From: Proteobacteria bacterium UBA2136
Lineage (GTDB): Bacteria > Pseudomonadota > Alphaproteobacteria > UBA2136
Assembly: GCA_002328405.1 (NCBI GenBank)
Contig: DCXM01000006.1
Location: 104,913-168,912 of the forward strand
Reading direction: 5' to 3'
Length of the DNA stretch: 64,000 nt
Part shown: positions 10,539-35,528 of the stretch, piece after piece
Position numbering within the stretch: the stretch's first letter is position 1
How the letters are laid out: the number at the start of each line of letters is the position of its first letter
The notes under the pieces: model-generated
What the model saw: only the letters and a program-made list of their open reading frames with translations
What the model was told of the DNA's origin: nothing
The model's database searches: none
Translations under genes and position numbers: made by a program

Positions 10539-10544
10539 CAAACA

Positions 10545-10576
10545 AAAGCCCTCTTTATGAGGGCTTTTTTATTTTT
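10545..10576. terminator. bidirectional rho-independent terminator
   Basis: aaaagccctctttatgagggcttttttattttt. Confidence 0.5.
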
Positions 10577-11282
10577 GTTCTGTGTAGAACAAGCCCACAA
10601 CAGGCCCCATATTTTGCTTTTGTATCACCACCGCAGCTTCCAACCCTTCGGGTCTAAGTGGTAATGTCAGGGACAGCTCTTTTTGACCATCCCACACCTT
10701 TAACAGTTCCTTAGAGCGGACAATGTTCACCGAGTGTAAAACACGCCCTTGATTCTCACCCTTGGTGACGGATGTGACAGCTTCAGGTCTGTAAGACACA
10801 TACCAAATATTGGCGACACCGCCCATGTCAAAGGCAGGCATTTGAACATATTCTCGGCCGTTTTTTTGGCTGTAAAAAATTGGGACATTCACTTGATTAT
10901 TTCGTGCCGATGACGCCAACATTTTAACCCGCCAGCCCCATGAGGCAGTGGTTTCTGATTGACCGTCCACCACCACTTGTGGCGTGTACAGGCTGCTGTT
11001 TTCAAACTTTTCCATATAATGCACTTGCCGTTGGCTGAAAGCACCTTGGGCAAAAGGGTCTTGCCAGCCCATTTTATCCCAATAATCCACATGGAAGCTT
11101 AAGGCAAAAAAATCGTCACGCTCATTTAATTGGCGGATAACCTTCTCACCCGCAGGGCAAGATCTGCAACCTTGTGAGGTAAAAAGCTCTAACAGCACAG
11201 GCCTTGCCTGCGCAAACAAGTCGTTCACACAAAAAAGCAAAACCAAGAAGGCAAGGGTTAGTTTTTGCCACATTGCACACAC
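10569..11282 (-). CDS. DUF1223 thioredoxin-like protein (secreted, CxxC)
   Basis: Signal peptide, then ELFTSQGCRSCPAGE, which matches the DUF1223 hallmark (ELFTSQGCSSCP). Overlaps the DoxX stop, so it is likely co-transcribed with the MNIO cluster. Confidence 0.65.
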   Translation of the reverse strand: MCAMWQKLTLAFLVLLFCVNDLFAQARPVLLELFTSQGCRSCPAGEKVIRQLNERDDFFALSFHVDYWDKMGWQDPFAQGAFSQRQVHYMEKFENSSLYTPQVVVDGQSETTASWGWRVKMLASSARNNQVNVPIFYSQKNGREYVQMPAFDMGGVANIWYVSYRPEAVTSVTKGENQGRVLHSVNIVRSKELLKVWDGQKELSLTLPLRPEGLEAAVVIQKQNMGPVVGLFYTEQK

Positions 11283-11836
11283 ACCTTGTTAAATTGACGC
11301 CTCACCCAGCTATCAAGCGACAAACAGCCCGAACCACGGCTGACCACCACCATTAACAGCAGCATCCACAAATAGTGTAAGTCATGTGCTTGGTATGTCA
11401 AATGCATCACCAAGGTCATAATCAGCAAACCAAAGGCCGCAATGCGCCCACCCAAGCCAACAAACAGCATCCAAGCAAAAACAATTTCAAAAAACGTGGC
11501 ACTTAACGCTGCAAATTCAGGTGAAAGATAAGGCACATTGTATTCATATTCAAACAACATATAAGCCGTATCCGTCACTTGATAAGGCAGAGGGATAAGA
11601 GGGAACTGCACACCCAAAAAGCTGACCGTTTCAGGCAAGCCAAACAATCCTTCACCTGTCACCTTGGTGTCAGCCGACCTTAAGAAAATTAAACCCATCC
11701 AAAAGCGTATCACCAACAAATTTACTGGCTCCACCACCCGTTCTAAAAAAATAAACTTACATTGCACCAACTGGCACAACTTTCCCCAACAACCGCATTT
11801 TTTCATAGTTTGATTTTGTTCATTGTTCATGGTCAT
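11258..11836 (-). CDS. DoxX family membrane protein (bufferin-cluster associated)
   Basis: Four predicted TM helices with DoxX-like topology. Overlaps the DUF2063 gene stop; same position as DoxX in bufferin operons. Confidence 0.7.
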   Translation of the reverse strand: MTMNNEQNQTMKKCGCWGKLCQLVQCKFIFLERVVEPVNLLVIRFWMGLIFLRSADTKVTGEGLFGLPETVSFLGVQFPLIPLPYQVTDTAYMLFEYEYNVPYLSPEFAALSATFFEIVFAWMLFVGLGGRIAAFGLLIMTLVMHLTYQAHDLHYLWMLLLMVVVSRGSGCLSLDSWVRRQFNKVCVQCGKN

Positions 11837-12581
11837 CTCTCCTCACAATCAATTGATGTTGCAATGCCAGCGTTAAGGCTTGCTCTAGCGTATCTCCGCC
11901 ATCTTCTTCAGCAATGTCTCTTAAAGTTTTGCCATCAAATAGCGCTTGCATTGCACCGTACACAGCTTTTGACAGCCCCTGAACCTGACAGTCGTAGGAT
12001 TCATCTCGCCATATCAAGGCATATTCATTATGAGCCAAATCAATATTTTCGACATCAAAACCACATTGCGATTGAATGTTATTATAAAGTGAAACAGCTG
12101 CACCATTAAAAGCCATTAAACAGGCCCTATCCACTGCTTTAAAGCGTAAATTTTCCATATCATCTTCGGTTATATGAACCAATGACAGACCCGTTAAAGA
12201 CATGTCATTTTCAGCGTGTTCGCATTGGTGCACCGCCCATTCCAACTTTGCAACATCATATAAAAATGTGTAATTCTGCGCAGAGGGGTGGTTTTGCAAA
12301 AACTCAGGGAATTTTTCACCATATTCAAACAAGCAACCCGATGTCGGTGGATACGCTTTAATATACTCTTCCGCAATGTAGCGAAAATAGGCCAGATCCA
12401 CCAATTCCGCTGTGATAGGGTATGTTGTGTGCAACGCTTTTTTTAAGCTGACAAATATATTGTTTTGATAAATGGCCAGCCGCTCAACCATTTGACCACT
12501 GACAATATCATGACTTGGTAAGCTTGCACCTTCTTGTTTTAAAAAGTGCTGTTGTAAAGTCTGCTGAAGGTTATGCAACAT
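11820..12581 (-). CDS. DUF2063 domain protein, partner of the MNIO enzyme (BufC-like)
   Basis: 253 aa; N-terminal motif …LAIYQNNIFVSLKKAL… (the YRNNV-type motif of DUF2063). Start overlaps the DUF692 gene stop by 11 nt. Confidence 0.75.
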   Translation of the reverse strand: MLHNLQQTLQQHFLKQEGASLPSHDIVSGQMVERLAIYQNNIFVSLKKALHTTYPITAELVDLAYFRYIAEEYIKAYPPTSGCLFEYGEKFPEFLQNHPSAQNYTFLYDVAKLEWAVHQCEHAENDMSLTGLSLVHITEDDMENLRFKAVDRACLMAFNGAAVSLYNNIQSQCGFDVENIDLAHNEYALIWRDESYDCQVQGLSKAVYGAMQALFDGKTLRDIAEEDGGDTLEQALTLALQHQLIVRRDDHEQ

Positions 12582-13449
12582 GTTGAGGCCTTACTTTTTG
12601 TTGAACAGTCATCGCCTTTTCCATTTCCCCTATCAGTACCGAAAGCGCTGGAATCTGACTGTCCCACTCCACCAAAGTGGCTGGTCGCCTGTCTGTGCTT
12701 TTTAAAAACAATTCGTACAACTGCCAAACATCATCTGCCACTTGAGCACCATGACTATCCACTTTCACCACCTGACCAGAGGCAAGGGTTTGCAATTCAT
12801 GCCCCGCAAGGTGCACCTCCTCAACCGCATCAAACGGCATGGCGCGTAATTGATCCGTCGCATCAAGGCCCAAATTTTCCGCCGTGACATAAACATTGTT
12901 CATATCCAACAGTAAACCACAACCTGTTTTTTCCACCATTTGGCTTAAAAACTCACCTTCTGGTTGCTGACCCTTCAAATTAAAGCCAACGTAAACAGAA
13001 GGGTTTTCCATCAAAATCTTCCTGCCCAAAAATTGTTGAACCATGTCAATATGCTGGCACAGTCTTTCCAGCGCTTCTCGGGTATAAGGCAGTGGCAGAA
13101 GGTCATTGAGATGCATACCGTCCACCCCTGACCATGACACATGTTCACTGACCAACGACGGTTGATATTGATCGACAATTTCTTTAAGGCGTTTTAGGTG
13201 TTTAAGGTCTGGCCTTGTGTGTGAACCTAGGGACAAACCAACACCGTGAAAACTTAGAGGATAATGTTCAGCCAATGCCTGCAAATAGGCATGCGCCTTA
13301 CCGCCTAATGCAAAAAAATTTTCACTGTGTACTTCCAAAAACCCAATTTCAGGCTTTTGTTCTAGAATTTCTTGATAATGCGGTGCACGCAATCCCACAC
13401 CTACATGAGCTGTGAGGTCTTGTGCACCATTTGGTCGGATGTCGTTCAT
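12571..13449 (-). CDS. multinuclear non-heme iron-dependent oxidative enzyme, MNIO/DUF692 (BufB-like)
   Basis: 292 aa; hallmark DUF692 motifs VGVGLRAPHY and FLEVHSENFF, TIM-barrel-like length. Abuts the precursor gene stop (13450). Confidence 0.85.
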   Translation of the reverse strand: MNDIRPNGAQDLTAHVGVGLRAPHYQEILEQKPEIGFLEVHSENFFALGGKAHAYLQALAEHYPLSFHGVGLSLGSHTRPDLKHLKRLKEIVDQYQPSLVSEHVSWSGVDGMHLNDLLPLPYTREALERLCQHIDMVQQFLGRKILMENPSVYVGFNLKGQQPEGEFLSQMVEKTGCGLLLDMNNVYVTAENLGLDATDQLRAMPFDAVEEVHLAGHELQTLASGQVVKVDSHGAQVADDVWQLYELFLKSTDRRPATLVEWDSQIPALSVLIGEMEKAMTVQQKVRPQHVA

Positions 13450-13713
13450 TTAAGACTCGGACGATTCCAAACTGCCGTTTACCAGCTTATCGCAAAGCCC
13501 TTTTGGAACGTAAACCCATTCAGTGGTGTCGCCATCTTCTTTTGACATACCTGCGCATGAGTGTACCGATGTACCACAGTCGTTTTGACCGGCTTTAGCA
13601 ACACCATAACATTTTTCATGTTCTTTTTTCTTCGCTTCAGCTTCACTGGCAGCGCCCGTGGTTGCAAGCGCACCTGTTAGCGCCAAGAAAGCCAATTTCG
13701 TTGTATTGTTCAT
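13450..13713 (-). CDS. DUF2282 precursor peptide (bufferin-like RiPP precursor, BufA-like)
   Basis: 87 aa. Sec signal peptide ([25 protein letters not shown]), then core [42 protein letters not shown] with 4 Cys in the DUF2282 pattern CYGVxxAGxNDC…HxCAG…WxxVPKGxC. Confidence 0.8.
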
Positions 13714-13921
13714 TGTTCAAGTTCCTTATTATTGAATGCAAGCAGTATTATTGCTTTTGTTATTTCTACATAGATATTCGCACCTATTTTCAGAATGGTT
13801 ACATTGTGAATGATTTTTGTGAGAAAAAAAACAGAAAGTTCATTTTTAAAGACAAAACAGCTTTGTATGGCAACTTTCTATACATAAGACATATAAACAA
13901 TTGACTGGCGACACAACAGCC

Positions 13922-15442
13922 TTACCAAGCGTCAAACTTGCCTTTAAATTCAGGGTCAGCGTAGTAGCGGATTTTTTCTGCTAAGACCGGACGACAACCC
14001 TGGACAAAAATAACCTGTGCGTCGTTTGGCATCCGCATCACTTCATCAGGGGTCATGAGAGGTCTCGACGTTTCGGAAACGTTGCTGCTGACATTGCCAC
14101 CAAACCACTGCCCCTTCTCCTTCGAGGTCCCTTCACCTGCCACACGGACCGTGGTTGTACCCATCATGTCAGACAAAATTTTGGCGGTGTCAAAGTCATT
14201 GGTACCAAAAGCCATCCGAACACTACAGTTGGCAATTAAGGACGCCCACTTGGGATAATCTTCCTTAATTTGTGATAAATCCTGAATAAACATCCAAAGG
14301 GAAATGCCATAACCAGCCAAATAACCGACACCTGATTCGATGTTTTTCATGTAACCAAGGGCTGGAAACTCATCAATAATAAACAAAGTTGGGTCTTTTG
14401 GTTTTTCTTGGGTACGGGTCAGCGTGGCAATAGTGATACCCATCATCAAACGCACTACAGGCTTGTATACATCTAAATACTCAGGTGGAATAATCACATA
14501 AAAAGATGTCGGCTCTTTTTTAATGTCTTCTAATTTAAAGTCACTGCGTGATGTGATGGAGGTTAGCCTTGGGCTGTCCCAAACAGCGGTTTGCGACTTT
14601 GCGGTGGAAAGAACCGAAGCCAATACCTTAGGCTCGGTCGCCGCTACTGAGTTAGCAATCCTTTGGATAATTTGGTTTTTACTGCGCTGCATGTCTTTAA
14701 TGGTCAGCTGAAAGTCTTTTTGGTCCTGCATAATCAGGTAACGCACCTCGCCCAAGTTGCGCAGCGCCGCAGGGCTTTCATTGGCCACATAAAGAATAAG
14801 GCCTGTGATCACGGTTTTTGCTTCATTGGTCCAAAACTCATCGCCACCACCGGGGACAATAATCATATCCGCAATTAAGGCGGCATCATCCAACTCATCA
14901 CTGGTGTTAATGCGAATAAAATCAATGGGGTTAAAGCAACCGCTACCTTCCATAAACGGTGCAAACGTGATTACTTTTGAAAATTGTGCACGGTGACGAC
15001 CAGAAACGGCGTAGTTTTCACCTTTAATGTCATTCACAACCACAGATCCTGGGTGGTCCAACAAGTTTGGAATAACGTGACCAACACCCTTACCACTACG
15101 TGTCGGTGCAAACGTGATTAAGTGACCAGGACTGCGAAAGCGCACAAATTTATTATCAAACTTGCCCAGCATAAAGCCATTTTCACGGACAAGATCCGCT
15201 TCTTTAAGATCCTTCATGGTTGCAAAGTCAGCAGAACCGTGGGCATGACTTGCCTTGCCTTGCATTTTCTTAAGTTCGCCCACTTGCTTTTTATAGCCTG
15301 CTTTGGGGCGATTTTTAAAATAAATATAAGCCATCGCAACAACAGCGGCAACAACCGCTGGAATCATCAACCCTTCCGGTACAACAAAAGGAATGGCCGC
15401 AGCCACCACAAGAGCTGTATACAAAAAAGTTTTTTGAGACAT
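13922..15442 (-). CDS. virD4: type IV secretion system coupling protein, VirD4/TraG family
   Basis: 506 aa; two N-terminal TM helices, Walker A APTRSGKGVGHVIPNLL (VirD4 type), Walker B LFIIDEFPALG. No other T4SS genes in the window. Confidence 0.75.
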   Translation of the reverse strand: MSQKTFLYTALVVAAAIPFVVPEGLMIPAVVAAVVAMAYIYFKNRPKAGYKKQVGELKKMQGKASHAHGSADFATMKDLKEADLVRENGFMLGKFDNKFVRFRSPGHLITFAPTRSGKGVGHVIPNLLDHPGSVVVNDIKGENYAVSGRHRAQFSKVITFAPFMEGSGCFNPIDFIRINTSDELDDAALIADMIIVPGGGDEFWTNEAKTVITGLILYVANESPAALRNLGEVRYLIMQDQKDFQLTIKDMQRSKNQIIQRIANSVAATEPKVLASVLSTAKSQTAVWDSPRLTSITSRSDFKLEDIKKEPTSFYVIIPPEYLDVYKPVVRLMMGITIATLTRTQEKPKDPTLFIIDEFPALGYMKNIESGVGYLAGYGISLWMFIQDLSQIKEDYPKWASLIANCSVRMAFGTNDFDTAKILSDMMGTTTVRVAGEGTSKEKGQWFGGNVSSNVSETSRPLMTPDEVMRMPNDAQVIFVQGCRPVLAEKIRYYADPEFKGKFDAW

Positions 15443-15555: not shown

Positions 15556-15804
15556 CTAGCGCTCTAAATCAAAGCCTTGTTCTTGCTCATGTTGTTGCTC
15601 AAGGCTTTTATCCATGACTTTATCACGGCCTTTCTCCAGCGCCATTTGAACTTGGCGAGACTGCGCAAGATAAACTTCATGCGTTTGCTCGGATTCTTTT
15701 AAAATCGTTTGAGCCGCACTCAACTCACCCTCGAGTGGTTTAATTTCACCATCTAAAAGCTCTTTAATTTGAGCAGATTTTTTTTCTCCATCAATCACAA
15801 CCAT
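15556..15804 (-). CDS. hypothetical coiled-coil protein (82 aa)
   Basis: Glu/Lys/Gln-rich helical ORF, translationally coupled (3-nt gap) to the upstream 183-aa ORF; upstream of virD4. Confidence 0.35.
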   Translation of the reverse strand: MVVIDGEKKSAQIKELLDGEIKPLEGELSAAQTILKESEQTHEVYLAQSRQVQMALEKGRDKVMDKSLEQQHEQEQGFDLER

Positions 15805-15807
15805 TTT

Positions 15808-16359
15808 TTAAACTCCCTTTAGTATATGCCCAAGCCAATTGGCAATTTTTTTGCCTTCGTTGAATGACTTTTTCATTTGTTCATAATTTATTGTATGCGC
15901 AACTTCTTTTGCGCGCAACCTGCCCCCAGTATTCACAACACCAAAAAGTGAAAAACCACGCAAATTACCAAAAACAGCCGGACGATTGCGCAGTGTCCAA
16001 CCTGTTTTAATCAGCCCTTTAACACCTTCCCACTGCAAACATTTTTGTTCTGCTTGGCTTGGTTTTTTGTAAACAATGCTAAAATTCGTACGCAAGTCTT
16101 TTTGAATCAGTTCCAATTTTGAGCGTATATCCTTAAAATCCTGCTTTAGGATTTGAATTTGATTCTCAATTTTTCGCACACGCCTTTTATTACCCCAAAT
16201 TGTGGAATCGCTCTCTTCCAGTGCCTTATTGAGGTAATGATTCAGCGCCGCCAGCTCGCTGGGTTTCATATTGTTTACAAGGTCAGAAAATTGGGCCTCT
16301 TTCCCAGTGTGACCCAGTATTTCCTTCAGTTCTGGCCTTGCGGCAAGAATATCCATCAT
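15808..16359 (-). CDS. hypothetical protein (183 aa)
   Basis: Intact ORF, no recognisable domain; first gene of a three-gene string ending in virD4. Confidence 0.4.
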   Translation of the reverse strand: MMDILAARPELKEILGHTGKEAQFSDLVNNMKPSELAALNHYLNKALEESDSTIWGNKRRVRKIENQIQILKQDFKDIRSKLELIQKDLRTNFSIVYKKPSQAEQKCLQWEGVKGLIKTGWTLRNRPAVFGNLRGFSLFGVVNTGGRLRAKEVAHTINYEQMKKSFNEGKKIANWLGHILKGV

Positions 16360-22031: not shown

Positions 22032-22991
22032 TTATGCCTCAAGCAGCCCTTCAACATAACGGATGGTATCCAAAGCCGCCATACAGCCCAAACCAGCTGC
22101 TGTCACCGCTTGGCGGTAAATTGGATCAGCCACGTCACCAGCAGCAAAAACACCATCCACATTCGTGTTGACTGTGCCCTTTTCAACTTCTAGATATCCA
22201 TATTCGTCCATATCCAACTGACCTTTAAATAAGTCAGTGTTTGGCTTGTGACCAATGGCAATGAAAACACCGTGACAAGGCACTTCTTCATATGCCCCAT
22301 CTTCGGTGTTTTGAAGTTTCACAGATGTTACACCACCCAGCGGGCCTTCTGTGCCTTGAATTTCAGCCACAACCGAGTTCCACTTTACTTGAATATTTTC
22401 GGTTTTTTCAATGCGGTTGCGCAGCACAACTTCACCACGGAAAGCATCACGGCGGTGCACCACCGTAACCGATTTACAAATGGCACTGAGGTACAAAGCC
22501 TCTTCCATCGCGGTGTTACCACCACCCACAACGACTACATCTTGACCGCGGAAAAACGCACCATCGCAAGTGGCACAAGCGCTCACACCTTTACCACTGA
22601 ACTTTTGTTCGCTTTCCAAGCCCAACCATTTGGCAGAAGCACCTGTTGCCACAATCAGTACATCACAGGTGTAAGTCGTGCCACTGTCACCTTTTAAAAC
22701 ATGTGGCTTTTGCTTCAAGTCCACTTCCACAATGGTGTCATTCACCATTTCTGTGCCGCAGTTTTCCGCCTGTTTGTTAAATTGATCCATCAACCAAGGG
22801 CCTTCAACAACGTTTGCAAAGCCAGGATAGTTTTCCACTTCATGGGTAATGGTCATCTGACCACCTGGCTGTAAACCATGAATAAGCATGGGCTTTAAGT
22901 TTGCGCGTGCTGTGTAAATAGCAGCGGTTGAACCGGCAGGTCCACTGCCTAAAATGATAACTTTGCGGTGAATGTTATTGGACATTGTCAT
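22032..22991 (-). CDS. trxB: thioredoxin-disulfide reductase
   Basis: 319 aa; FAD motif GSGPAGSTAAIY, redox-active CATCDG, NADPH motif VVGGGNTAMEEA. Confidence 0.9.
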   Translation of the reverse strand: MTMSNNIHRKVIILGSGPAGSTAAIYTARANLKPMLIHGLQPGGQMTITHEVENYPGFANVVEGPWLMDQFNKQAENCGTEMVNDTIVEVDLKQKPHVLKGDSGTTYTCDVLIVATGASAKWLGLESEQKFSGKGVSACATCDGAFFRGQDVVVVGGGNTAMEEALYLSAICKSVTVVHRRDAFRGEVVLRNRIEKTENIQVKWNSVVAEIQGTEGPLGGVTSVKLQNTEDGAYEEVPCHGVFIAIGHKPNTDLFKGQLDMDEYGYLEVEKGTVNTNVDGVFAAGDVADPIYRQAVTAAGLGCMAALDTIRYVEGLLEA

Positions 22992-23169: not shown

Positions 23170-23763
23170 ATGACATTTATGGTTGGGCAAAAATTCCCAA
23201 CTGCTACCACACCAGCAGTTATGGAAAATGGCGAAATTAACAACGACTTTAGCGTAGCCGAGCATGGCAAAGGCTCATACACAGTTGTATTCTTTTACCC
23301 ACTTGACTTTACATTTGTATGCCCAACAGAACTTGTGGCATTCAACAAAGCAATGAGCCGTTTTGAAGCACTGGGTTGCAAAGTTGTTGCCGCATCTGTG
23401 GACAGCGTTTTCTCTCACGCTGCATGGCGCCGCACACCACTGGCAGACGGTGGCATTGAAGAAGTGAACTACCCAATGCTTTCAGACATTGAGCGTAAGC
23501 TTTCAAACGAGCTTGGCATCTTGGCTGATGGCGGTGTGACTTTCCGTGCATCTTACCTAATTGACAAAGAAGGTACAGTTCGCCACATGGTTGTGAACGA
23601 CCTACCACTTGGCCGCAGCGTTGAAGAAATGTTGCGCATGGTGGAAGCTTTAGACTTCCACGAAAAACACGGTGAAGTTTGCCCAGCAAACTGGAAACAA
23701 GGCGAAGAAGGTATGCAAGCCAACCGTGAAAGCACAAGCGCTTACTTGTCTAAAACAGCATAA
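23170..23763 (+). CDS. peroxiredoxin (typical 2-Cys Prx, AhpC/TSA family)
   Basis: 197 aa; peroxidatic Cys motif FTFVCPTE and resolving Cys GEVCPA near the C-terminus; AAGGAG RBS. Confidence 0.9.
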   Translation: MTFMVGQKFPTATTPAVMENGEINNDFSVAEHGKGSYTVVFFYPLDFTFVCPTELVAFNKAMSRFEALGCKVVAASVDSVFSHAAWRRTPLADGGIEEVNYPMLSDIERKLSNELGILADGGVTFRASYLIDKEGTVRHMVVNDLPLGRSVEEMLRMVEALDFHEKHGEVCPANWKQGEEGMQANRESTSAYLSKTA

Positions 23764-24500: not shown

Positions 24501-24662
24501 GGGAATGTTTATTTTTAATGTTATACTCCCAGTCAAACGTTATTTAAAAAAAAGCATATCGTGGCAACCAACTTGAAAAAGCGATGGTTCAACACCACAA
24601 ATGTGATAGCGAATATTTTTTAAAGTTTTTAAAAACAAAATAAGAAAAATGAGGTGAACCCC

Positions 24663-26927
24663 ATGCAAATTGAAAGCACACCAGCCTTTGTGGAAGCTGT
24701 TTACAAAAAAACAGAAGAAAATCTGAAAATTGTCCGTGAAAGGCTTAAACGCCCCCTCACCTACGCAGAAAAAATTATTTACGGCCACTTAGATGACCCA
24801 CAAGACGCTGAACTTGAGCATGGTACATCTTACATTAAAGTACGCCCCAACCGCATCGCATTGCAAGATGCCACCGCGCAGATGGCTATTTTACAATTTA
24901 TGCTCGCAGGTAAGTCCTCGGCTGCTGTACCAGTGACTGTTCACTGTGACCACCTGATCCGTGCCCACACAGGCGCAAAAGACGACTTGGCCACAGCCAA
25001 CAGCGAAAACAAAGAGGTTTACAATTTCCTTTCATCCGCTTCTTCAAACTATGACTTTGGCTTTTGGAAGCCAGGTGCTGGTATCATCCACCAAGTGGTG
25101 CTGGAACAATACGCCTTCCCTGGTTTGATGATGCTGGGCACAGACTCCCACACACCAAACGCTGGTGGCCTTGGTGCCTTTGCTTGTGGCGTAGGCGGTG
25201 CCGACGCTGTCGACGTGATGGTTGATATGCCTTGGGAAGTTTTACACCCGAAAATTGTAGGTGTCCGCTTAACAGGCGAACTTAAAGGCTGGGCCGCACC
25301 GAAAGACATTATTTTGAAGCTGCTTGGCATTTTAACATGTGCGGGCGGTACCAACCGTGTGATTGAATACTTTGGCGAAGGTGTGCAATCTATTTCTTGC
25401 ACCGGTAAGGCAACCATTTGCAACATGGGTGCAGAGCTCGGCGCAACCACATCTATCTTCCCATATGACAAGCGCATGTCCACCTACCTTGGTGTCACCA
25501 ACCGTAAAGAAACTGCCGAACTGGCCGACAAGTACACACACTTGCTTTGCGCAGATGATGAAGTGCTCGCCAAACCGGAAGACTTTTACGAAATGGTGAT
25601 CGACATCAACTTGTCCGAACTAGAACCACACATTGTTGGCCCACACTCACCAGATTTGGCCGTGCCTGTGTCAGGCATGAAAAAGCACATGGAAGAAGGT
25701 GGCTGGCCTAAAAACCTCACATCCGCCCTCATTGGTTCTTGCACCAACTCATCTTATGAGGACATGGGCCGTGTCGCCGAAATGGCCGAGCAACTTTCTG
25801 CAAAAGGCGCCAAGTTGAAAATGCCACTCCTCATCACACCGGGCAGTGAGCAAGTTCACCAAACCATCATCCGTGATGGGCAATTGGCTTCACTGGAAAA
25901 ATTGGGTGCAACCGTTCTTGCCAACGCTTGTGGCCCTTGCATTGGCCAATGGAAACGGGACGACATTGAGATGGGCGAAGAAAACTCCATCGTTTCATCT
26001 TACAACCGTAACTTCCCGAAACGTAATGACGGCAACCCACAAACTTGCTCATTCATCGGCAGCCCTGAAACGACGTTGGCTTATGCCTTGTTTGGCCGCC
26101 TAGACGTTGACCCATACAACACCGACATTGAAGCCGCAGACGGTACAAAATTCCGCCTCAACGCACCCGAAAATGTTGCGGAAGTTCCAGCCGACGGTTT
26201 TGTGAAGGATGAAGCTGGCTACCAAAAACCAGCAGACGGCAAAGTGGACGTTGTTGTTGACGAAAACAGCGAACGCCTTGAAAGGCTCACACCATTCGAC
26301 AAATGGAGCGGCGAGGACTACAAAGGCCTCCGCCTATTGCTAAAAGCGCAAGGCAAATGCACAACCGACCACATTTCTCCAGCAGGGCCTTGGTTGAAGT
26401 TCCGTGGCCACCTTGACAATATCAGTGACAACATGTTCAACGGCGCCATTAACGCCTTTAGCGGTGAAGCTGGCTTTGGTAAAAACCCTTACACCGAAGA
26501 AAAAGAGCAGTTCAGCAAAATTGCCCGTGCCATTAAGGCCAAAGGCGAAGGCTGGGTTGCCGTGGGTGACAACAACTACGGTGAAGGTTCGTCCCGTGAG
26601 CATGCGGCCATGAGCCCAAGGCTACTCGGTTGCCGTGCCGTAATCACCCGTAGCTTTGCACGTATCCATGAAACCAACCTCAAAAAGCAAGGTGTTCTAC
26701 CTTTAACCTTTGTGAATGAGTCGGACTACGAGCTGATTGAAGAAGGTGACAAAATCGACCTTGTTGGCTTGAAGGACTTGGCACCAGGCAGCCGTGTCAA
26801 AGCTGTGGTCACACACGCAGACGGCTCAACTGTTGAAATTGAACTGAAACACTCACTCAACAATGAGCAATTGGTTTGGTTTAGAAACGGCAGTGCTTTA
26901 AACACCATCCGCGCAAAAGCGTCATAA
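24663..26927 (+). CDS. acn: aconitate hydratase (mitochondrial-type aconitase family)
   Basis: ~754 aa; Fe-S ligand cysteines in the aconitase motifs (…VGGADAVDVM…, IGSCTNSSYEDM, NACGPCIGQW), swivel-domain SR motif (GSSREHAA). The track start at 24654 is a GTG; the ATG at 24663 has a GAGGTGA SD. Confidence 0.85.
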   Translation: MQIESTPAFVEAVYKKTEENLKIVRERLKRPLTYAEKIIYGHLDDPQDAELEHGTSYIKVRPNRIALQDATAQMAILQFMLAGKSSAAVPVTVHCDHLIRAHTGAKDDLATANSENKEVYNFLSSASSNYDFGFWKPGAGIIHQVVLEQYAFPGLMMLGTDSHTPNAGGLGAFACGVGGADAVDVMVDMPWEVLHPKIVGVRLTGELKGWAAPKDIILKLLGILTCAGGTNRVIEYFGEGVQSISCTGKATICNMGAELGATTSIFPYDKRMSTYLGVTNRKETAELADKYTHLLCADDEVLAKPEDFYEMVIDINLSELEPHIVGPHSPDLAVPVSGMKKHMEEGGWPKNLTSALIGSCTNSSYEDMGRVAEMAEQLSAKGAKLKMPLLITPGSEQVHQTIIRDGQLASLEKLGATVLANACGPCIGQWKRDDIEMGEENSIVSSYNRNFPKRNDGNPQTCSFIGSPETTLAYALFGRLDVDPYNTDIEAADGTKFRLNAPENVAEVPADGFVKDEAGYQKPADGKVDVVVDENSERLERLTPFDKWSGEDYKGLRLLLKAQGKCTTDHISPAGPWLKFRGHLDNISDNMFNGAINAFSGEAGFGKNPYTEEKEQFSKIARAIKAKGEGWVAVGDNNYGEGSSREHAAMSPRLLGCRAVITRSFARIHETNLKKQGVLPLTFVNESDYELIEEGDKIDLVGLKDLAPGSRVKAVVTHADGSTVEIELKHSLNNEQLVWFRNGSALNTIRAKAS

Positions 26928-30680: not shown

Positions 30681-33600
30681 TTAGTTAACCAAGCCTTTTA
30701 ACTGCCCTAAAGCAACGTTTAAAATGGCGTGAGAGACTTCTTCGTTCTCCTTCAACTCCTCAATAAATTTGTTGTATTGAGTCATTGAACCATTTTTGGT
30801 GCCAAGCCAGCATTTAACAGCGTCGCCTGCTTGTTTAATTTTACCGCACTCCTTGTCTTCAATCACATGGCCGGTAATTTCTTTTTGATAACCATATAAC
30901 TGCTCAATGATAGACAAGCTACCCACCCGTTGCCAGTTGTTGGTCACGGGGATTGCACGAGTACGTTTGTGCAGGTAATCAAACTCCAAGCTTTCACCCA
31001 CTCTAAAGTGCAGGTCCATCACCTCGCCCACTTTTTTCTGACGTTCCATGGCAATGGTTGCCACATCGGCCGAACAGTTAAGCGTTGGCATCAGAGACCA
31101 TTCCTTTGCAACTTTTGCAGGCACGCCCATTTCAAGCCATGTGGATTCACGCTTGTTAATGCGTTCTTGCATGTCCGCCGTTAAGTGTTTTGGCAACACC
31201 TTACGAATGTCATCAAAGTAAGTTTGGAACGCTTTTAAGCTTTTCTCCACGTTCAATGGTTTGTCCTTACCATTACGCAAGAACCAAAACGCTGTACCTT
31301 CTAAAAGTTTTTTAACGACATTACGCATTTCTTTTTGGACATTGGCGTTCACCTTGTTATCCAAGGCATCAATGGCGTCATACCATTTTTGTGCACCCAA
31401 TAGTTTCTTAGAAATAACAAAGGCACGGGTAATGGTGCAAGCCTCGTGGCCTGTTTCATCCATCATACGGTCCATAAAGGTCATACCCATGCGGTTGATC
31501 AGCTCATTGGTCACCTTCGTTGCAATAATTTCCGTTTTCAGGCGGTGCTTTTGCATAAAGTCTTTGTATTTACGCTGCAACTTGGTTGGGAAGTAGTCGT
31601 ACAGGTACAAGTCTTCCATCACCGTCTCACTTGGCAACTTGCTGTTCACCAAAGTGTTGTAAAGGTCCATTTTGGTGTAAGCCATCAATACAGAAAGTTC
31701 TGGCCTTGTAAGCCCTCTTCCTTCCTTAGAACGTTGTTCCAGCTCTTCCTCATCTGGTAGGTATTCCAACTTACGGTTTAGGAAACCTTTCTTCTCAAGC
31801 GATGTTAACAAGCGCTTGTGCGGTTCCAACATATCCTTACTGACCATTTGCGCAATACTTAAAATTTGTGACTGACGGTAGTTGGCTTCCAGTGAAAGTT
31901 CACCCACCTCTTCTGTCATTTCTTCTAACAATTTATTACGTGCCGCTTCTTTAAGTTTGCCGGTTTCTTCAACCAAACGGAGCAACACTTTAATGTTCAC
32001 CTCAATGTCAGAACAGTTGACACCGGCCGAGTTATCAATCGCATCGGTGTTGACGTAACCACCTTTAGCCGCATAATCAATACGTGCCAGTTGGGTAAAG
32101 CCTAAGTTACCGCCTTCGCCAAGGGCTTTCACACGTAGCTCATCCGCATTGATACGAATGGCATCATTGGCACGGTCGCCCACTTCGGCGTTGCTCTCTT
32201 CCTTAGACTTCACAAAGGTACCAATACCGCCGTTCCACAGCAGATCAACTGGTGCTTTTAAAATGCACTGAATCAATTCATTCGGTGTCATCTTCGCTTG
32301 ATTTACACCGAGCACTTGCTGCATTTCTTTTGAAATTTCAACCGACTTTTCACCACGACTGATGATGGCACCACCTTTTGAAATGGCATTTGTGTCATAA
32401 TCCGCCCAAGTAAGCCTTGGGTTTTTAAACAGGCGTTGACGTTCCTTGTAACTTTTCGCCACGTCTGGGTTCGGGTCTAAGAAGATGTGCATATGGTTGA
32501 ACGCTGCCACCAACTTCGTATGCTTGGAAAGCAACATGCCGTTACCAAACACGTCCCCCGCCATGTCGCCAATGCCTACGCAGGTAAAGTCTTCTTCTTG
32601 AATGTTGCGACCCATTTCACGGAAATGGTGTTTCACACATTCCCAAGCGCCACGGGCAGTGATACCCATTTTTTTATGGTCATAACCGTTTGAACCGCCT
32701 GATGCAAAGGCATCGCCAAGCCAGAAGCCTGCATCGGTGCCATCCCAATAGTCGGCAGTTAACGCCTGTTCATTGGCAAGGTCTGAAAATGTGGCGGTAC
32801 CTTTATCCGCTGCCACAACAAGGTACGGGTCATCGCCGTCCTTCATCACCACGTTACGTGGGTGAAGCACTTTACCTTCAAATAAGTTATCGGTCACCGA
32901 AAGCAAACCGTGGATAAACACCTTGTAAGCCGTTTGCACAGCTTCCATCATCGATGCTCTATCCTTGCTTTCAGGTTCCGCCTTCAGGACAAAACCACCT
33001 TTTGAACCCAACGGCACAATCACCGCATTTTTGGTCATCTGTGTTTTCATCAAGCCAAGCACTTCGGTTCTAAAGTCTTCTGGACGGTCCGACCAGCGTA
33101 AACCACCACGTGCCACCATGCCACCACGCAAGTGAACACCTTCCACCACACTGTGGTAGACAAAAATTTCATACATGGGGTGTGGTTTTGGCAGGTTTGG
33201 CACCTTGGCACTTTCCACCTTAAAGGCTAGTGGCGCTGTCGCCTCTTCATTTTGGAAGGCGTTGGTACGCACGCACGCATTGATCACGCCCCAAATTTGG
33301 CGCAAAATCACGTCCTCATCCAGTGACTTCACCTGCGCCAAGGTTTCTTCTAATTTACCTGCAATCGCTTTTTCAGACTTTTCACGCACCGCTTTTGAAA
33401 GCGCTGGGTTAAAGCGAGCATCAAAAAGTTCACACAAGGTGCGGGAAATATCAGCATGCTTGATTAAAGTTTGGCGGATATATTCTTTTGAGTAAGGCAT
33501 CACGCACTGCTGGAGGTAAGCCACAAAAGCTCGCAAATAAACCACTTCGCGGATGTTGAGCCCAGCTTCAACAATCAATGCATTCAAGCTGTCATTTTCC

Positions 33601-35528
33601 AATTCGCCACACCATGCGCGTTCCACCGCTTCTGTGAGAACATTTCTCACATTTTCGTCATAAATGCACTTTTGATTCGCATTTACGGCAACACCAAAAT
33701 CATGCACCCAAACGCCTGGTTCGTTCAAAGCTTCAATGTATGTTGAGTTCTCATCTGTGATGTAAAGACCCATGTTATTGAAGGTTGGCATCAACTGGGA
33801 CAAGCCAATTCGTTCTTCTTTATGGAGCACTTTTAAATGCACTTCCTTTTCTTCTCCTAGAGCGATGGAAACCAAGAAGTTGAGGTCATATTTAAACATG
33901 TTTTCAAAGGATGTAATGTCCTGCAACGCCATGTAAACATTGTTGTTTTCTTGGTAACCAAGGCGGAAAGCGCCTTTGTATTTTTTGTGTAAGCTTAAAC
34001 CCTCACGCTCACCATAAGCGTCGCAAAGCTGGTGTTCCAAGTCGTCCGTCCACGACCTTGCAACTTCACGGATCCGCGCTTCCACTTCCAGCTCTTTCAC
34101 CTGTGGGACAGACGGTGGGTTGGAACGAATTTTTAGGTACAATCGCGCAAGACGTGATTCGCCTACGTTCATCAAATATTCAATATCTTCAGCGTTGTAT
34201 TCTTCTGTTAAAATGGCAACAATTTTCTTACGCAACGCACTGCTCATACGGTCTAGCGGAATAAAGACCATGGCGGTGGTCAACAACTCGTGACGGCTTT
34301 GACGAACAAAAAGGCGCACCTGTTGACGTTCCTTTAAATTCAAAATCCCGGTAGAAATACGTTCTAAATCATCCACATCAATTTGGAAAAGCTCGTCCCT
34401 TGGGTACATTTCAAGGATGTTGACCAACGCTTTGTAGTTGTGAGACTGTGGCGGCAAGTTGGTTTGTGCGGACAGCACCTTTTCAATTTTACGGCGGACA
34501 ATTGGAATTTGCCTTGGGTTGGTGGTGTACGCGCGGGATGTCAACAGACCAAGGAAGCGGTGTTCGCCAATCACGTTGCCTTTTTCGTCAAATTCTTTAA
34601 TACCGATGTAGTCCATGTCTGCCCTGCGGTGAACTGGAGACTTGGTGTTGGCTTTGGTAATAGTGACAAAATCTTTTTTGTTGGAGTAATAATGTTTAAG
34701 GTTTGGCGGCACATCATCTAAACATGTTTTTTCATAAACAGATGACGTTTTATCATCACGCAAAATGCCTAAACCACTGCGCTTGGAAAGCGCCATGTAT
34801 GTCTTTTTATTTTCGTGTGAAATTTTATAATGGCGATAACCTAAGAAAATGTAATTTTTGTTAATCAGCCATTTGAAAAACTCAGATTCTTCGCTGTGCT
34901 TTTTGGCCGTTGTGGACTTTTCAACCTTTTGCACCAAAGCATCCATTTTTTTCACCATACCTGCAAAGTCACGGCTAACAGCTGCAGCTTCTTTTAAAAC
35001 ATGTTGAATAGCGGCTTCAATTTCTTCTAACAAAGAATCTTCAGGAATATATTCCAATTCCATGTGGATCAACACTTCACGGTTGTAACCTTCTGGCGCC
35101 TCGCCTGAATCAGTGTTGTCCTCAAACTCAAGCAAACGGCCGTTTTTATCTCTCTTCACCAAGAAAACAGGGTGGAAGGTGTGGCGCACTTCAATGTCCC
35201 TATCTTGGGCTTCTTCCCACATGGAATCCACCAAAAATGGGCCATCGTCCATGTAAACTTCAATCACCACATTGCTGGTGTCCTGCGCGCGGTAGACCGA
35301 AACATGCTGTTCACCCGGTTTAAAGGCCTTTAAAACATCAAAAGCGTGCTCCATATGTTTATCAAAGTGAGGGCGATTATCAATCAGTGAGACGACTTCT
35401 GCCTCTGGCGTTCTGTCAAAATAAAGTTGCGCAAATTTTGCTAAATTTTTGCCCTGCTTGTTTTTTTGAAGTTTTTTGATAAAAGTTTGAAAACTTTTTT
35501 TACCGCTCTTGGTTTCAATTGGCGCCAT
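30681..35528 (-). CDS. gdhB: NAD-specific glutamate dehydrogenase, large (~180 kDa) Bac_GDH family
   Basis: 1615 aa single ORF; characteristic length and central catalytic region (…GGxRWSDRPEDFRTEVLGL…, KGTATFSD) of giant NAD-GDHs. Confidence 0.9.
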   Translation of the reverse strand: MAPIETKSGKKSFQTFIKKLQKNKQGKNLAKFAQLYFDRTPEAEVVSLIDNRPHFDKHMEHAFDVLKAFKPGEQHVSVYRAQDTSNVVIEVYMDDGPFLVDSMWEEAQDRDIEVRHTFHPVFLVKRDKNGRLLEFEDNTDSGEAPEGYNREVLIHMELEYIPEDSLLEEIEAAIQHVLKEAAAVSRDFAGMVKKMDALVQKVEKSTTAKKHSEESEFFKWLINKNYIFLGYRHYKISHENKKTYMALSKRSGLGILRDDKTSSVYEKTCLDDVPPNLKHYYSNKKDFVTITKANTKSPVHRRADMDYIGIKEFDEKGNVIGEHRFLGLLTSRAYTTNPRQIPIVRRKIEKVLSAQTNLPPQSHNYKALVNILEMYPRDELFQIDVDDLERISTGILNLKERQQVRLFVRQSRHELLTTAMVFIPLDRMSSALRKKIVAILTEEYNAEDIEYLMNVGESRLARLYLKIRSNPPSVPQVKELEVEARIREVARSWTDDLEHQLCDAYGEREGLSLHKKYKGAFRLGYQENNNVYMALQDITSFENMFKYDLNFLVSIALGEEKEVHLKVLHKEERIGLSQLMPTFNNMGLYITDENSTYIEALNEPGVWVHDFGVAVNANQKCIYDENVRNVLTEAVERAWCGELENDSLNALIVEAGLNIREVVYLRAFVAYLQQCVMPYSKEYIRQTLIKHADISRTLCELFDARFNPALSKAVREKSEKAIAGKLEETLAQVKSLDEDVILRQIWGVINACVRTNAFQNEEATAPLAFKVESAKVPNLPKPHPMYEIFVYHSVVEGVHLRGGMVARGGLRWSDRPEDFRTEVLGLMKTQMTKNAVIVPLGSKGGFVLKAEPESKDRASMMEAVQTAYKVFIHGLLSVTDNLFEGKVLHPRNVVMKDGDDPYLVVAADKGTATFSDLANEQALTADYWDGTDAGFWLGDAFASGGSNGYDHKKMGITARGAWECVKHHFREMGRNIQEEDFTCVGIGDMAGDVFGNGMLLSKHTKLVAAFNHMHIFLDPNPDVAKSYKERQRLFKNPRLTWADYDTNAISKGGAIISRGEKSVEISKEMQQVLGVNQAKMTPNELIQCILKAPVDLLWNGGIGTFVKSKEESNAEVGDRANDAIRINADELRVKALGEGGNLGFTQLARIDYAAKGGYVNTDAIDNSAGVNCSDIEVNIKVLLRLVEETGKLKEAARNKLLEEMTEEVGELSLEANYRQSQILSIAQMVSKDMLEPHKRLLTSLEKKGFLNRKLEYLPDEEELEQRSKEGRGLTRPELSVLMAYTKMDLYNTLVNSKLPSETVMEDLYLYDYFPTKLQRKYKDFMQKHRLKTEIIATKVTNELINRMGMTFMDRMMDETGHEACTITRAFVISKKLLGAQKWYDAIDALDNKVNANVQKEMRNVVKKLLEGTAFWFLRNGKDKPLNVEKSLKAFQTYFDDIRKVLPKHLTADMQERINKRESTWLEMGVPAKVAKEWSLMPTLNCSADVATIAMERQKKVGEVMDLHFRVGESLEFDYLHKRTRAIPVTNNWQRVGSLSIIEQLYGYQKEITGHVIEDKECGKIKQAGDAVKCWLGTKNGSMTQYNKFIEELKENEEVSHAILNVALGQLKGLVN

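Follow-up and report, generated by a model that had tools for sequence, protein, structure and literature searches.

The stretch of 64,000 nucleotides of contig DCXM01000006.1 from Proteobacteria bacterium UBA2136 analysed here, which we refer to throughout as the window, carries on its minus strand a five-gene operon, bufA-bufB-bufC-doxX-DUF1223 (positions 13713..10569), in which a bufferin biosynthesis cluster is extended by a gene for a thioredoxin-fold protein of the DUF1223 family. This extension is a conserved, lineage-specific variant of the bufferin operon with a separate occurrence elsewhere, and the operon most likely starts at a stress promoter of the ECF16 (σF/NrsF) type. As the best overall explanation we favour, with moderate confidence, an ECF16-driven bufferin operon in which DUF1223 tends the sulfurs of the bufferin. 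Among the peptides modified by multinuclear iron oxidases (MNIOs) the bufferins make up the largest family, and roles have so far been assigned only to the MNIO and its DUF2063 partner, the DoxX protein being dispensable in the model system. That a secreted CxxC protein is kept while DoxX is discarded points to a periplasmic redox step after bufferin export. The promoter motif and the conservation of DUF1223 in the operon across the lineage are new beyond the first-pass annotation of this DNA.

Family identities were taken from searches with Pfam and NCBIfam profiles at their curated cutoffs (Table 1). The first-pass annotation had placed at these positions five abutting or overlapping minus-strand genes, encoding a Sec-exported DUF2282-type precursor with four cysteines, a DUF692 enzyme, its DUF2063 partner, a DoxX membrane protein and a DUF1223 CxxC protein, and had suggested a check by hidden Markov model (HMM) searches. 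All five proteins exceed their Pfam cutoffs, and the coordinates of the open reading frames (ORFs) and the DNA at the junctions bear the arrangement out. The family names given were right, whereas the Pfam accessions were not, DUF2282 being PF10048 and DUF2063 being PF09836. Read from the DNA, the bufA stop codon directly adjoins the bufB ATG; the overlaps measure 11 nt between bufB and bufC, 17 nt between bufC and doxX, and 16 nt between doxX and DUF1223, the last counted from the DUF1223 ATG at 11273. This ATG is the likelier start rather than the GTG at 11282, and it yields a product of 234 residues, the same as the deposited protein MAF31971.1. A hairpin with a stem of 10 pairs, followed by a T-run, lies directly 3' of the DUF1223 stop, and no internal terminator was found on the minus (coding) strand of the operon. 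As judged from the sequence, the operon is genuine and its five genes form one predicted transcription unit with the hairpin terminator at its end.

The four cysteines of BufA (C35, C46, C53 and C74) follow the DUF2282 pattern, and the PF10048 match covers positions 2-53 of the 53 in the profile. All four, together with His51, are invariant across eight members of the clade described below, which are 65-79% identical. The N-terminus, MNNTTK followed by a hydrophobic stretch and SEAEA/KKK, reads as a Sec-type signal peptide with predicted cleavage at AEA/KKK, and this layout is kept in the relatives. A match of BufA to PHD_2 was below threshold and was dismissed. BufB contains the HVGVGLRAPH and EVHSENF motifs quoted in the first-pass annotation and belongs to the NCBIfam equivalog NF050167 (MNIO_BufB), with 351.3 bits where the cutoff is 310; with the profiles of other MNIO subfamilies (HvfB, MbnB, ApyH and ChrH) its scores stay far under the cutoffs, and it is ~51% identical to proteins of Photobacterium and Teredinibacter named 'MNIO family bufferin maturase'. 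In BufC the matched DUF2063 domain is N-terminal, and a weak match to NCBIfam HvfC falls under the cutoff. The DoxX proteins of the clade have Cys-rich N-termini (residues 1-30) and usually a C-terminal Cys (residues 185-192); these ends were rejected as a motif, only Cys14 being invariant. A four-Cys DUF2282 precursor with a Sec signal, a BufB-type MNIO, a DUF2063 protein and DoxX are thus all present in the canonical Buf1 gene order, which supports the assignment of the four-gene core to the canonical Buf1-type bufferin clusters (the 'captophorin' class), an architecture that the earlier annotation had also recognised. This is a system already known, described by Leprevost et al. 2024 (PMC11626156) and in the MNIO landscape paper (PMC12452194).

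The closest point of reference is the buf1 operon of Caulobacter vibrioides (CCNA_03363-03366 / CC3254-CC3257), which has the same order of DUF2282, MNIO, DUF2063 and DoxX genes, a Sec-exported four-Cys precursor and the same GTAACC-N16-CGAA motif upstream. The window operon differs in possessing a fifth gene, DUF1223, translationally coupled at its end; a search of the ORFs of 150-250 residues found no sigF-nrsF pair near it; and its sister lineages lose DoxX but never DUF1223. In Caulobacter, Cys modification requires both BufB and BufC, which also suffice for it, DoxX being dispensable; in BufA1 the central pair of Cys is turned into 5-thiooxazoles and the outer pair forms a disulfide, a species at -12 Da carrying a second disulfide exists, and mature bufferin binds copper in the periplasm (PMC11626156). 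By analogy, the window BufB, a multinuclear iron oxidase, would together with BufC convert C46 and C53 of BufA to 5-thiooxazoles in the cytoplasm; Sec would export the modified peptide, C35 and C74 would pair as a disulfide, and the mature bufferin would sequester surplus periplasmic copper.

Upstream of bufA, GTAACC-N16-CGAA (-35 TGTAACC, -10 CGAAT) occurs as the sole perfect match on either strand of the 64-kb window, where 0.07 would be expected. It is the experimentally defined σF-binding sequence of the Caulobacter buf1 (CC3254-57) and buf2 operons (PMC3511200) and fits the ECF16 consensus, (T/C)GTAAC-N17-CGAA (PMC8315932). In six relatives (our loci L001, L003, L005, L006, L173 and L174) the motif is kept 5' of bufA as (C)ACAATGTAAC(C)-N16-CGAAT, exactly in two, with one mismatch in three and with two mismatches in one. 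The same two boxes, the 16-nt spacing and a similar distance to bufA are retained, and the spacers have otherwise diverged, a pattern of conservation that marks the motif as a phylogenetic footprint. No σ70-like site was found in the 208-bp AT-rich spacer 5' of bufA. An ECF16-type sigma factor would turn on a single bufA-bufB-bufC-doxX-DUF1223 transcript from this site, and we infer regulation by an actual σF.

Table 1. Features of the bufferin operon in the window, in the order of transcription
Feature	Position	Strand	Evidence
ECF16/σF-type promoter motif	13777..13802	-	TGTAACC-N16-CGAAT, 64 nt 5' of bufA ATG
bufA, 87-residue Buf1-type DUF2282 precursor	13450..13713	-	Pfam PF10048, 85.1 bits (cutoff 22.4)
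bufB, MNIO/DUF692 (MbnB_TglH_ChrH) maturase	12571..13449	-	Pfam PF05114, 332 bits
bufC, DUF2063 partner of MNIO	11820..12581	-	Pfam PF09836, 72.5 bits (cutoff 27.2)
bufD (doxX), DoxX-family membrane protein	11258..11836	-	Pfam PF07681, 41.6 bits (cutoff 23.6)
DUF1223 thioredoxin-fold protein	10569..11273 (ORF to 11282)	-	Pfam PF06764, 180.5 bits (cutoff 30.7)
Intrinsic terminator hairpin	10544..10568	-	AAAAGCCCTCATAAAGAGGGCTTTT then GTTTG, 10-pair stem

Proteins identical to those of the window are found in Tara Oceans marine metagenome-assembled genomes deposited as 'Magnetococcales bacterium' or 'Pseudomonadota bacterium'. Homologues of the window DUF1223 form one group at 44-99% identity, after which identity falls to 40% or less. 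DUF1223 is the last gene of the operon in all ten relatives from this lineage with recoverable upstream context, where it overlaps the preceding gene or lies at most 13 nt from it and the protein is 44-62% identical to that of the window; L175, whose contig ends 180 nt 5' of DUF1223, is uninformative and was left out of the count. Two of these ten operons were located through BufB matches alone, independently of DUF1223, and both carry the gene. DoxX, by comparison, is present in 6 and absent from 5 of the 11 lineage operons, the window included. The DoxX-less taxa are sister to DoxX-bearing ones at two places in the tree, which implies at least two losses, and since DUF1223 was kept where DoxX was lost, it is the better conserved accessory gene within the lineage. 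Extra conserved genes in MNIO clusters have been recorded at very small proportions (PMC12452194). DUF1223 is not named in the main texts and text supplements of the ECF16 and bufferin papers searched (for PMC11626156, in the main text), in keeping with the earlier statement that it lies outside the canonical operon.

Most of the lineage operons share the synteny VirD4 ... RmuC-aminotransferase-Ffh. In the deepest branch (L088-L090) it is a DUF302 gene that stands downstream. It begins at most 16 nt after DUF1223 (L088 3191-3646, L089 1673-2125, L090 1374-1826) and is a possible sixth member of the operon.

The DUF1223 protein of the window has a signal peptide, the sequence C36-R-S-C39-P, an HVDYWD segment, a cis-Pro at T97-P98 and a C-terminal β-sandwich. 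The family-wide invariants are C36-x-x-C39-P, HVDYWD, T97-P98 and G-E-N, with C36, C39, P40, T97 and P98 invariant across 173 sequences. A neighbour-joining tree of 13 in-clade and 160 outgroup sequences, with 100 bootstraps, recovers the buf-linked DUF1223s of the lineage as monophyletic in 100 of 100 replicates. Within this clade W112, G113, W114, R115, K117, M118, F56 and L228 are invariant, whereas each is found in 0-7% of the 160 outgroups; W112-M118 constitute a private motif, WGWRxKM. The AlphaFold2 model (pLDDT 93.1) has a thioredoxin fold followed by a β-sandwich. Its nearest structural relative, and the only DUF1223 with a solved structure, is Atu2684/AGR_C_4864 of Agrobacterium tumefaciens (PDB 2axo), determined in 2005 by structural genomics with no function assigned. 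The two proteins share the Pfam family and the fold, with a TM-score of ~0.8 (Foldseek E 5e-18, TM 0.79/0.83; 1.4e-60 in an HMM search of PDB sequences), but they are only 24% identical in the structural alignment and nothing ties 2axo to a bufferin context. Further fold matches are to HBP35 and, more distantly, to DsbA, TlpA and CcmG. An NCBIfam Omp28 match of 36.9 bits was dismissed, the cutoff being 150. The substrate groove of thioredoxins is made up of the CxxC, the cis-Pro loop and the loop between strand 4 and helix 3, and a Thr preceding the cis-Pro is typical of DsbC/DsbG-type proteins. The activity of DUF1223 is most likely that of a reductase or isomerase.

An oxidising role would follow if DoxX and DUF1223 were a pair resembling DsbB and DsbA, with DUF1223 making the CysI-CysIV disulfide of the bufferin and being re-oxidised through a quinone-linked DoxX. 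The DoxD/DoxX family is linked with quinone oxidoreductases, and the DoxX of the operon has a weak DoxD match. Moreover, doxX and DUF1223 overlap by 13-16 nt in the six loci having both, mature Buf1 requires one disulfide, and DsbA is among the distant fold matches noted above. Such a pair would nevertheless have to occur together, and the losses of DoxX from 5 of the 11 operons left DUF1223 in place. The neighbours of the DUF1223 family belong mainly to a reducing pathway (ScsB/DsbD and CcdA; see below), DoxX is dispensable for both maturation and function of Caulobacter Buf1, and the Buf1 disulfide forms in E. coli even without export (PMC11626156). We consider an oxidising pair improbable.

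Outside the clade, 175 loci were compared: 15 on plasmids or chromids and 160 outgroup loci, drawn 80 each from species genomes and metagenome contigs among the matches listed. No in-clade species genome is among those listed, and the metagenome matches listed are at most 40% identical. In none of the 160 outgroup loci listed does a gene for an MNIO or a DUF2063 protein lie within 6 kb of DUF1223, and a sensitivity control and a reverse screen agree. This result had suggested that DUF1223 is linked to an MNIO in the clade alone, a view overturned by a locus (L180) on the megaplasmid NZ_CP032828.1 of Sphingomonas paeninsulae, where the order is sigma - DUF1109 - precursor - DUF692 - DUF2063 - DUF1223. 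The MNIO-DUF2063-DUF1223 order is the same as in the window, DUF1223 overlaps the DUF2063 gene, and an exact ECF16 motif precedes the precursor and not DUF1223. The locus differs in that the precursor is a six-Cys Buf2-like protein rather than a DUF2282 protein and that a sigma/anti-sigma pair adjoins it; its DUF1223 is 34.5% identical to that of the window and lacks both WGWRxKM and the His of HVDYWD. The simplest account is a separate recruitment of DUF1223. Taken together, the Sphingomonas locus and the marine clade imply that the MNIO-DUF1223 fusion arose at least two times, in two different bufferin families.

The commonest neighbour of DUF1223 outside the clade is aconitase, at 64 of the 175 loci, and ccm genes are sometimes near. 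The 15 plasmid and chromid loci contain 12 exact GTAACC-N16-CGAA motifs against 0.2 expected, and at seven of these loci the DUF1223 start is preceded on the right strand, at 31-166 nt, by an exact or GTAACN motif. At chromosomal and metagenomic outgroup loci the motif is found within 300 nt 5' of DUF1223 in 14 of 154 usable cases, compared with 3 of 1408 control windows. None of the 20 loci with the motif is among the 64 that adjoin aconitase, so that there seem to be two types of DUF1223, one housekeeping and one belonging to a stress regulon; the clade proteins are 36-39% identical to both. The aconitase gene of the window (24654-26927, plus strand) clusters with genes for a thioredoxin-reductase-like protein (22032-22991, minus strand) and an AhpC-type peroxiredoxin (23170-23763, plus strand). 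It has no adjoining DUF1223, and the sole DUF1223 copy in the window is that of the buf operon.

On plasmids, the surroundings of DUF1223 are dominated by genes for envelope thiol redox chemistry and copper. A reductase with an ScsB/DsbD domain is encoded directly 3' of DUF1223 at three loci on Burkholderiaceae plasmids, and thioredoxin and CcdA genes stand beside it at three plasmid loci. Other neighbours are DsbB with thioredoxin, three DsbA genes, SCO, PCuAC and TlpA, a multicopper oxidase, CopD, YedY-like molybdoenzymes (two loci) and an MXKDX repeat protein; sigma/DUF1109 pairs lie within 5 kb at four plasmid loci. The Scs (suppressor of copper sensitivity) and DsbD/CcdA systems resemble the case described here in that they involve periplasmic thioredoxin-fold CxxC proteins and copper stress. 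DUF1223, however, is not of the ScsC/DsbA family and its fold similarity is distant, the link being one of neighbourhood. A search of the window for an electron donor of the CcdA, DsbD or ScsB type found none.

Three further contexts of DUF1223 may be recorded. A stretch of 10.6 kb on the Paraburkholderia plasmid NZ_AP023177.1 (L183, 264490-275155) has six exact GTAACC-N16-CGAA motifs, which precede DUF1223-DsbD, an HD-GYP gene, a YkgJ-family gene, thioredoxin-CcdA, a sigma-DUF1109 pair and a DUF4148 gene, and it looks like an ECF16 regulon island. On two Burkholderiaceae plasmids a hypothetical gene of ~260 codons lies directly 5' of DUF1223 (L185 4104-4886, L186 4072-4875) with an ECF16 motif of its own, exact in L185 and with one mismatch in L186. 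In Paraburkholderia phytofirmans (L066, 3-1087 and 5878-6690), where DUF1223 has an exact ECF16 motif upstream, a stand-alone DUF2282-DoxX pair without an MNIO is situated ~5 kb from DUF1223, and a similar divergent DUF2282-DoxX pair is present at the Sphingomonas locus.

The copper-related neighbours (SCO, PCuAC, multicopper oxidase and CopD) would also suit a copper carrier of the Sco kind, in which DUF1223 binds Cu(I) through its CxxC and nearby His and Asp residues and passes copper to or from the bufferin. Sco and DUF1223 have the thioredoxin fold in common, and the family-wide invariant residues C36, C39, H61, D63, Y64 and W65 lie close together where strands 1 and 2 end. However, the MNIO-linked DUF1223 of Sphingomonas is without the His (FAVTYWD), the data at hand for the solved homologue 2axo indicate no metal, and the adjacency of ScsB/DsbD and CcdA suits a redox client better. 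Copper carriage by DUF1223 is in our judgement very improbable.

We conclude that DUF1223 is probably a periplasmic thiol oxidoreductase of a stress regulon that was captured into the operon. By motifs and neighbours, the family recurs throughout the Proteobacteria as a probable member of this ECF16 regulon and beside the reducing pathway of the envelope (ScsB/DsbD, CcdA, thioredoxin). Capture into the bufferin operon of the marine lineage would have been followed by specialisation, for which the private WGWRxKM motif argues. When copper or oxidative stress sets in, DUF1223 would, as a periplasmic thiol-disulfide oxidoreductase, hold the sulfur ligands of the bufferin in their proper redox state, and it could reduce or isomerise wrong disulfides, including an inactive form with a second disulfide between the thiooxazole sulfurs; we infer that the bufferin is its substrate. 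A more far-reaching proposal, which we regard as possible but on balance doubtful, is that DUF1223 represents an unrecognised class of periplasmic thiol-disulfide oxidoreductases of the ECF16 metal/oxidant regulon, supplied with electrons by ScsB, DsbD or CcdA, and that the WGWRxKM subfamily is a dedicated redox chaperone by which bufferins, as thiooxazole metallophores, stay active.

The position of DUF1223 in the operon could, on the other hand, reflect co-regulation only. The protein would then be a general envelope thiol-repair enzyme of the ECF16 regulon, its gene merged, in a compact marine genome, into the adjoining operon of the regulon to save a promoter, and it is quite plausible that it acts on many periplasmic proteins and not on bufferin specifically. 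DUF1223 elsewhere has its own ECF16 promoter motif with no bufferin genes near, a single locus of the 175 outside the clade is MNIO-linked, the genes in the window are tightly packed and overlapping, and the Caulobacter σF regulon functions with no DUF1223 listed. Co-regulation accounts less readily for an operon position kept over more than 50% sequence divergence, for precise DoxX deletions that leave DUF1223 coupled to bufC, for a WGWRxKM motif that is both invariant and clade-specific, and for a second fusion with a different bufferin family in Sphingomonas. We give co-regulation alone a modest though real chance.

Several observations weigh against the redox-tending role that we favour. 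The rarity of MNIO linkage outside the clade is one of them, and most DUF1223 genes, standing alone or beside aconitase, clearly function without a bufferin. The synteny within the lineage is vertical inheritance and thus essentially one evolutionary event, to which the Sphingomonas locus adds another. No Sigma70_r2/r4 or DUF1109 domain, as expected of a sigma/NrsF pair, was detected among the window's ORFs of 150-250 residues, so that the regulator must lie elsewhere. The placing of WGWRxKM in the strand-4/helix-3 loop is deduced from the order of secondary structure elements rather than from coordinates, and DUF1223 may act as a reductase, an isomerase or an oxidase. Finally, expression, secretion, modification and copper binding of the window bufferin would follow from its homology to Caulobacter Buf1.

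If the redox-chaperone reading is true, DUF1223 would be the first known case of an accessory enzyme that acts on an exported bufferin. The pattern of ECF16 motifs together with ScsB/DsbD, CcdA and copper neighbours offers a first clue to the function of this widespread domain, and makes DUF1223 a candidate additional member of the ECF16 regulon, which in Caulobacter, Brucella and rhizobia has been implicated in stress caused by metals, oxidants and hypochlorite.

The window has ~44% G+C and is core chromosome, with genes for TrmD, RimM, Ffh, RmuC, aconitase, PNPase, TruB, RimP and MetK. Within this setting a gene for a VirD4/TraG-type type IV coupling protein (13922-15442, minus strand) adjoins the operon. 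Together with two small conserved ORFs (15556-15804 and 15808-16359, minus strand), for which no Pfam match was found, it is syntenic in all long contigs of the lineage. A gene of 430-445 codons, also with no Pfam match, stands between VirD4 and bufA in four relatives (L001 2615-3907, L003 2547-3884, L005 2498-3790, L176 4220-5554) and is absent in the window, L173 and L177. Further along the window, 30681-35528 (minus strand) encodes a bacterial NAD-specific glutamate dehydrogenase of 1615 residues with the complete set of ACT and helical-motif domains.

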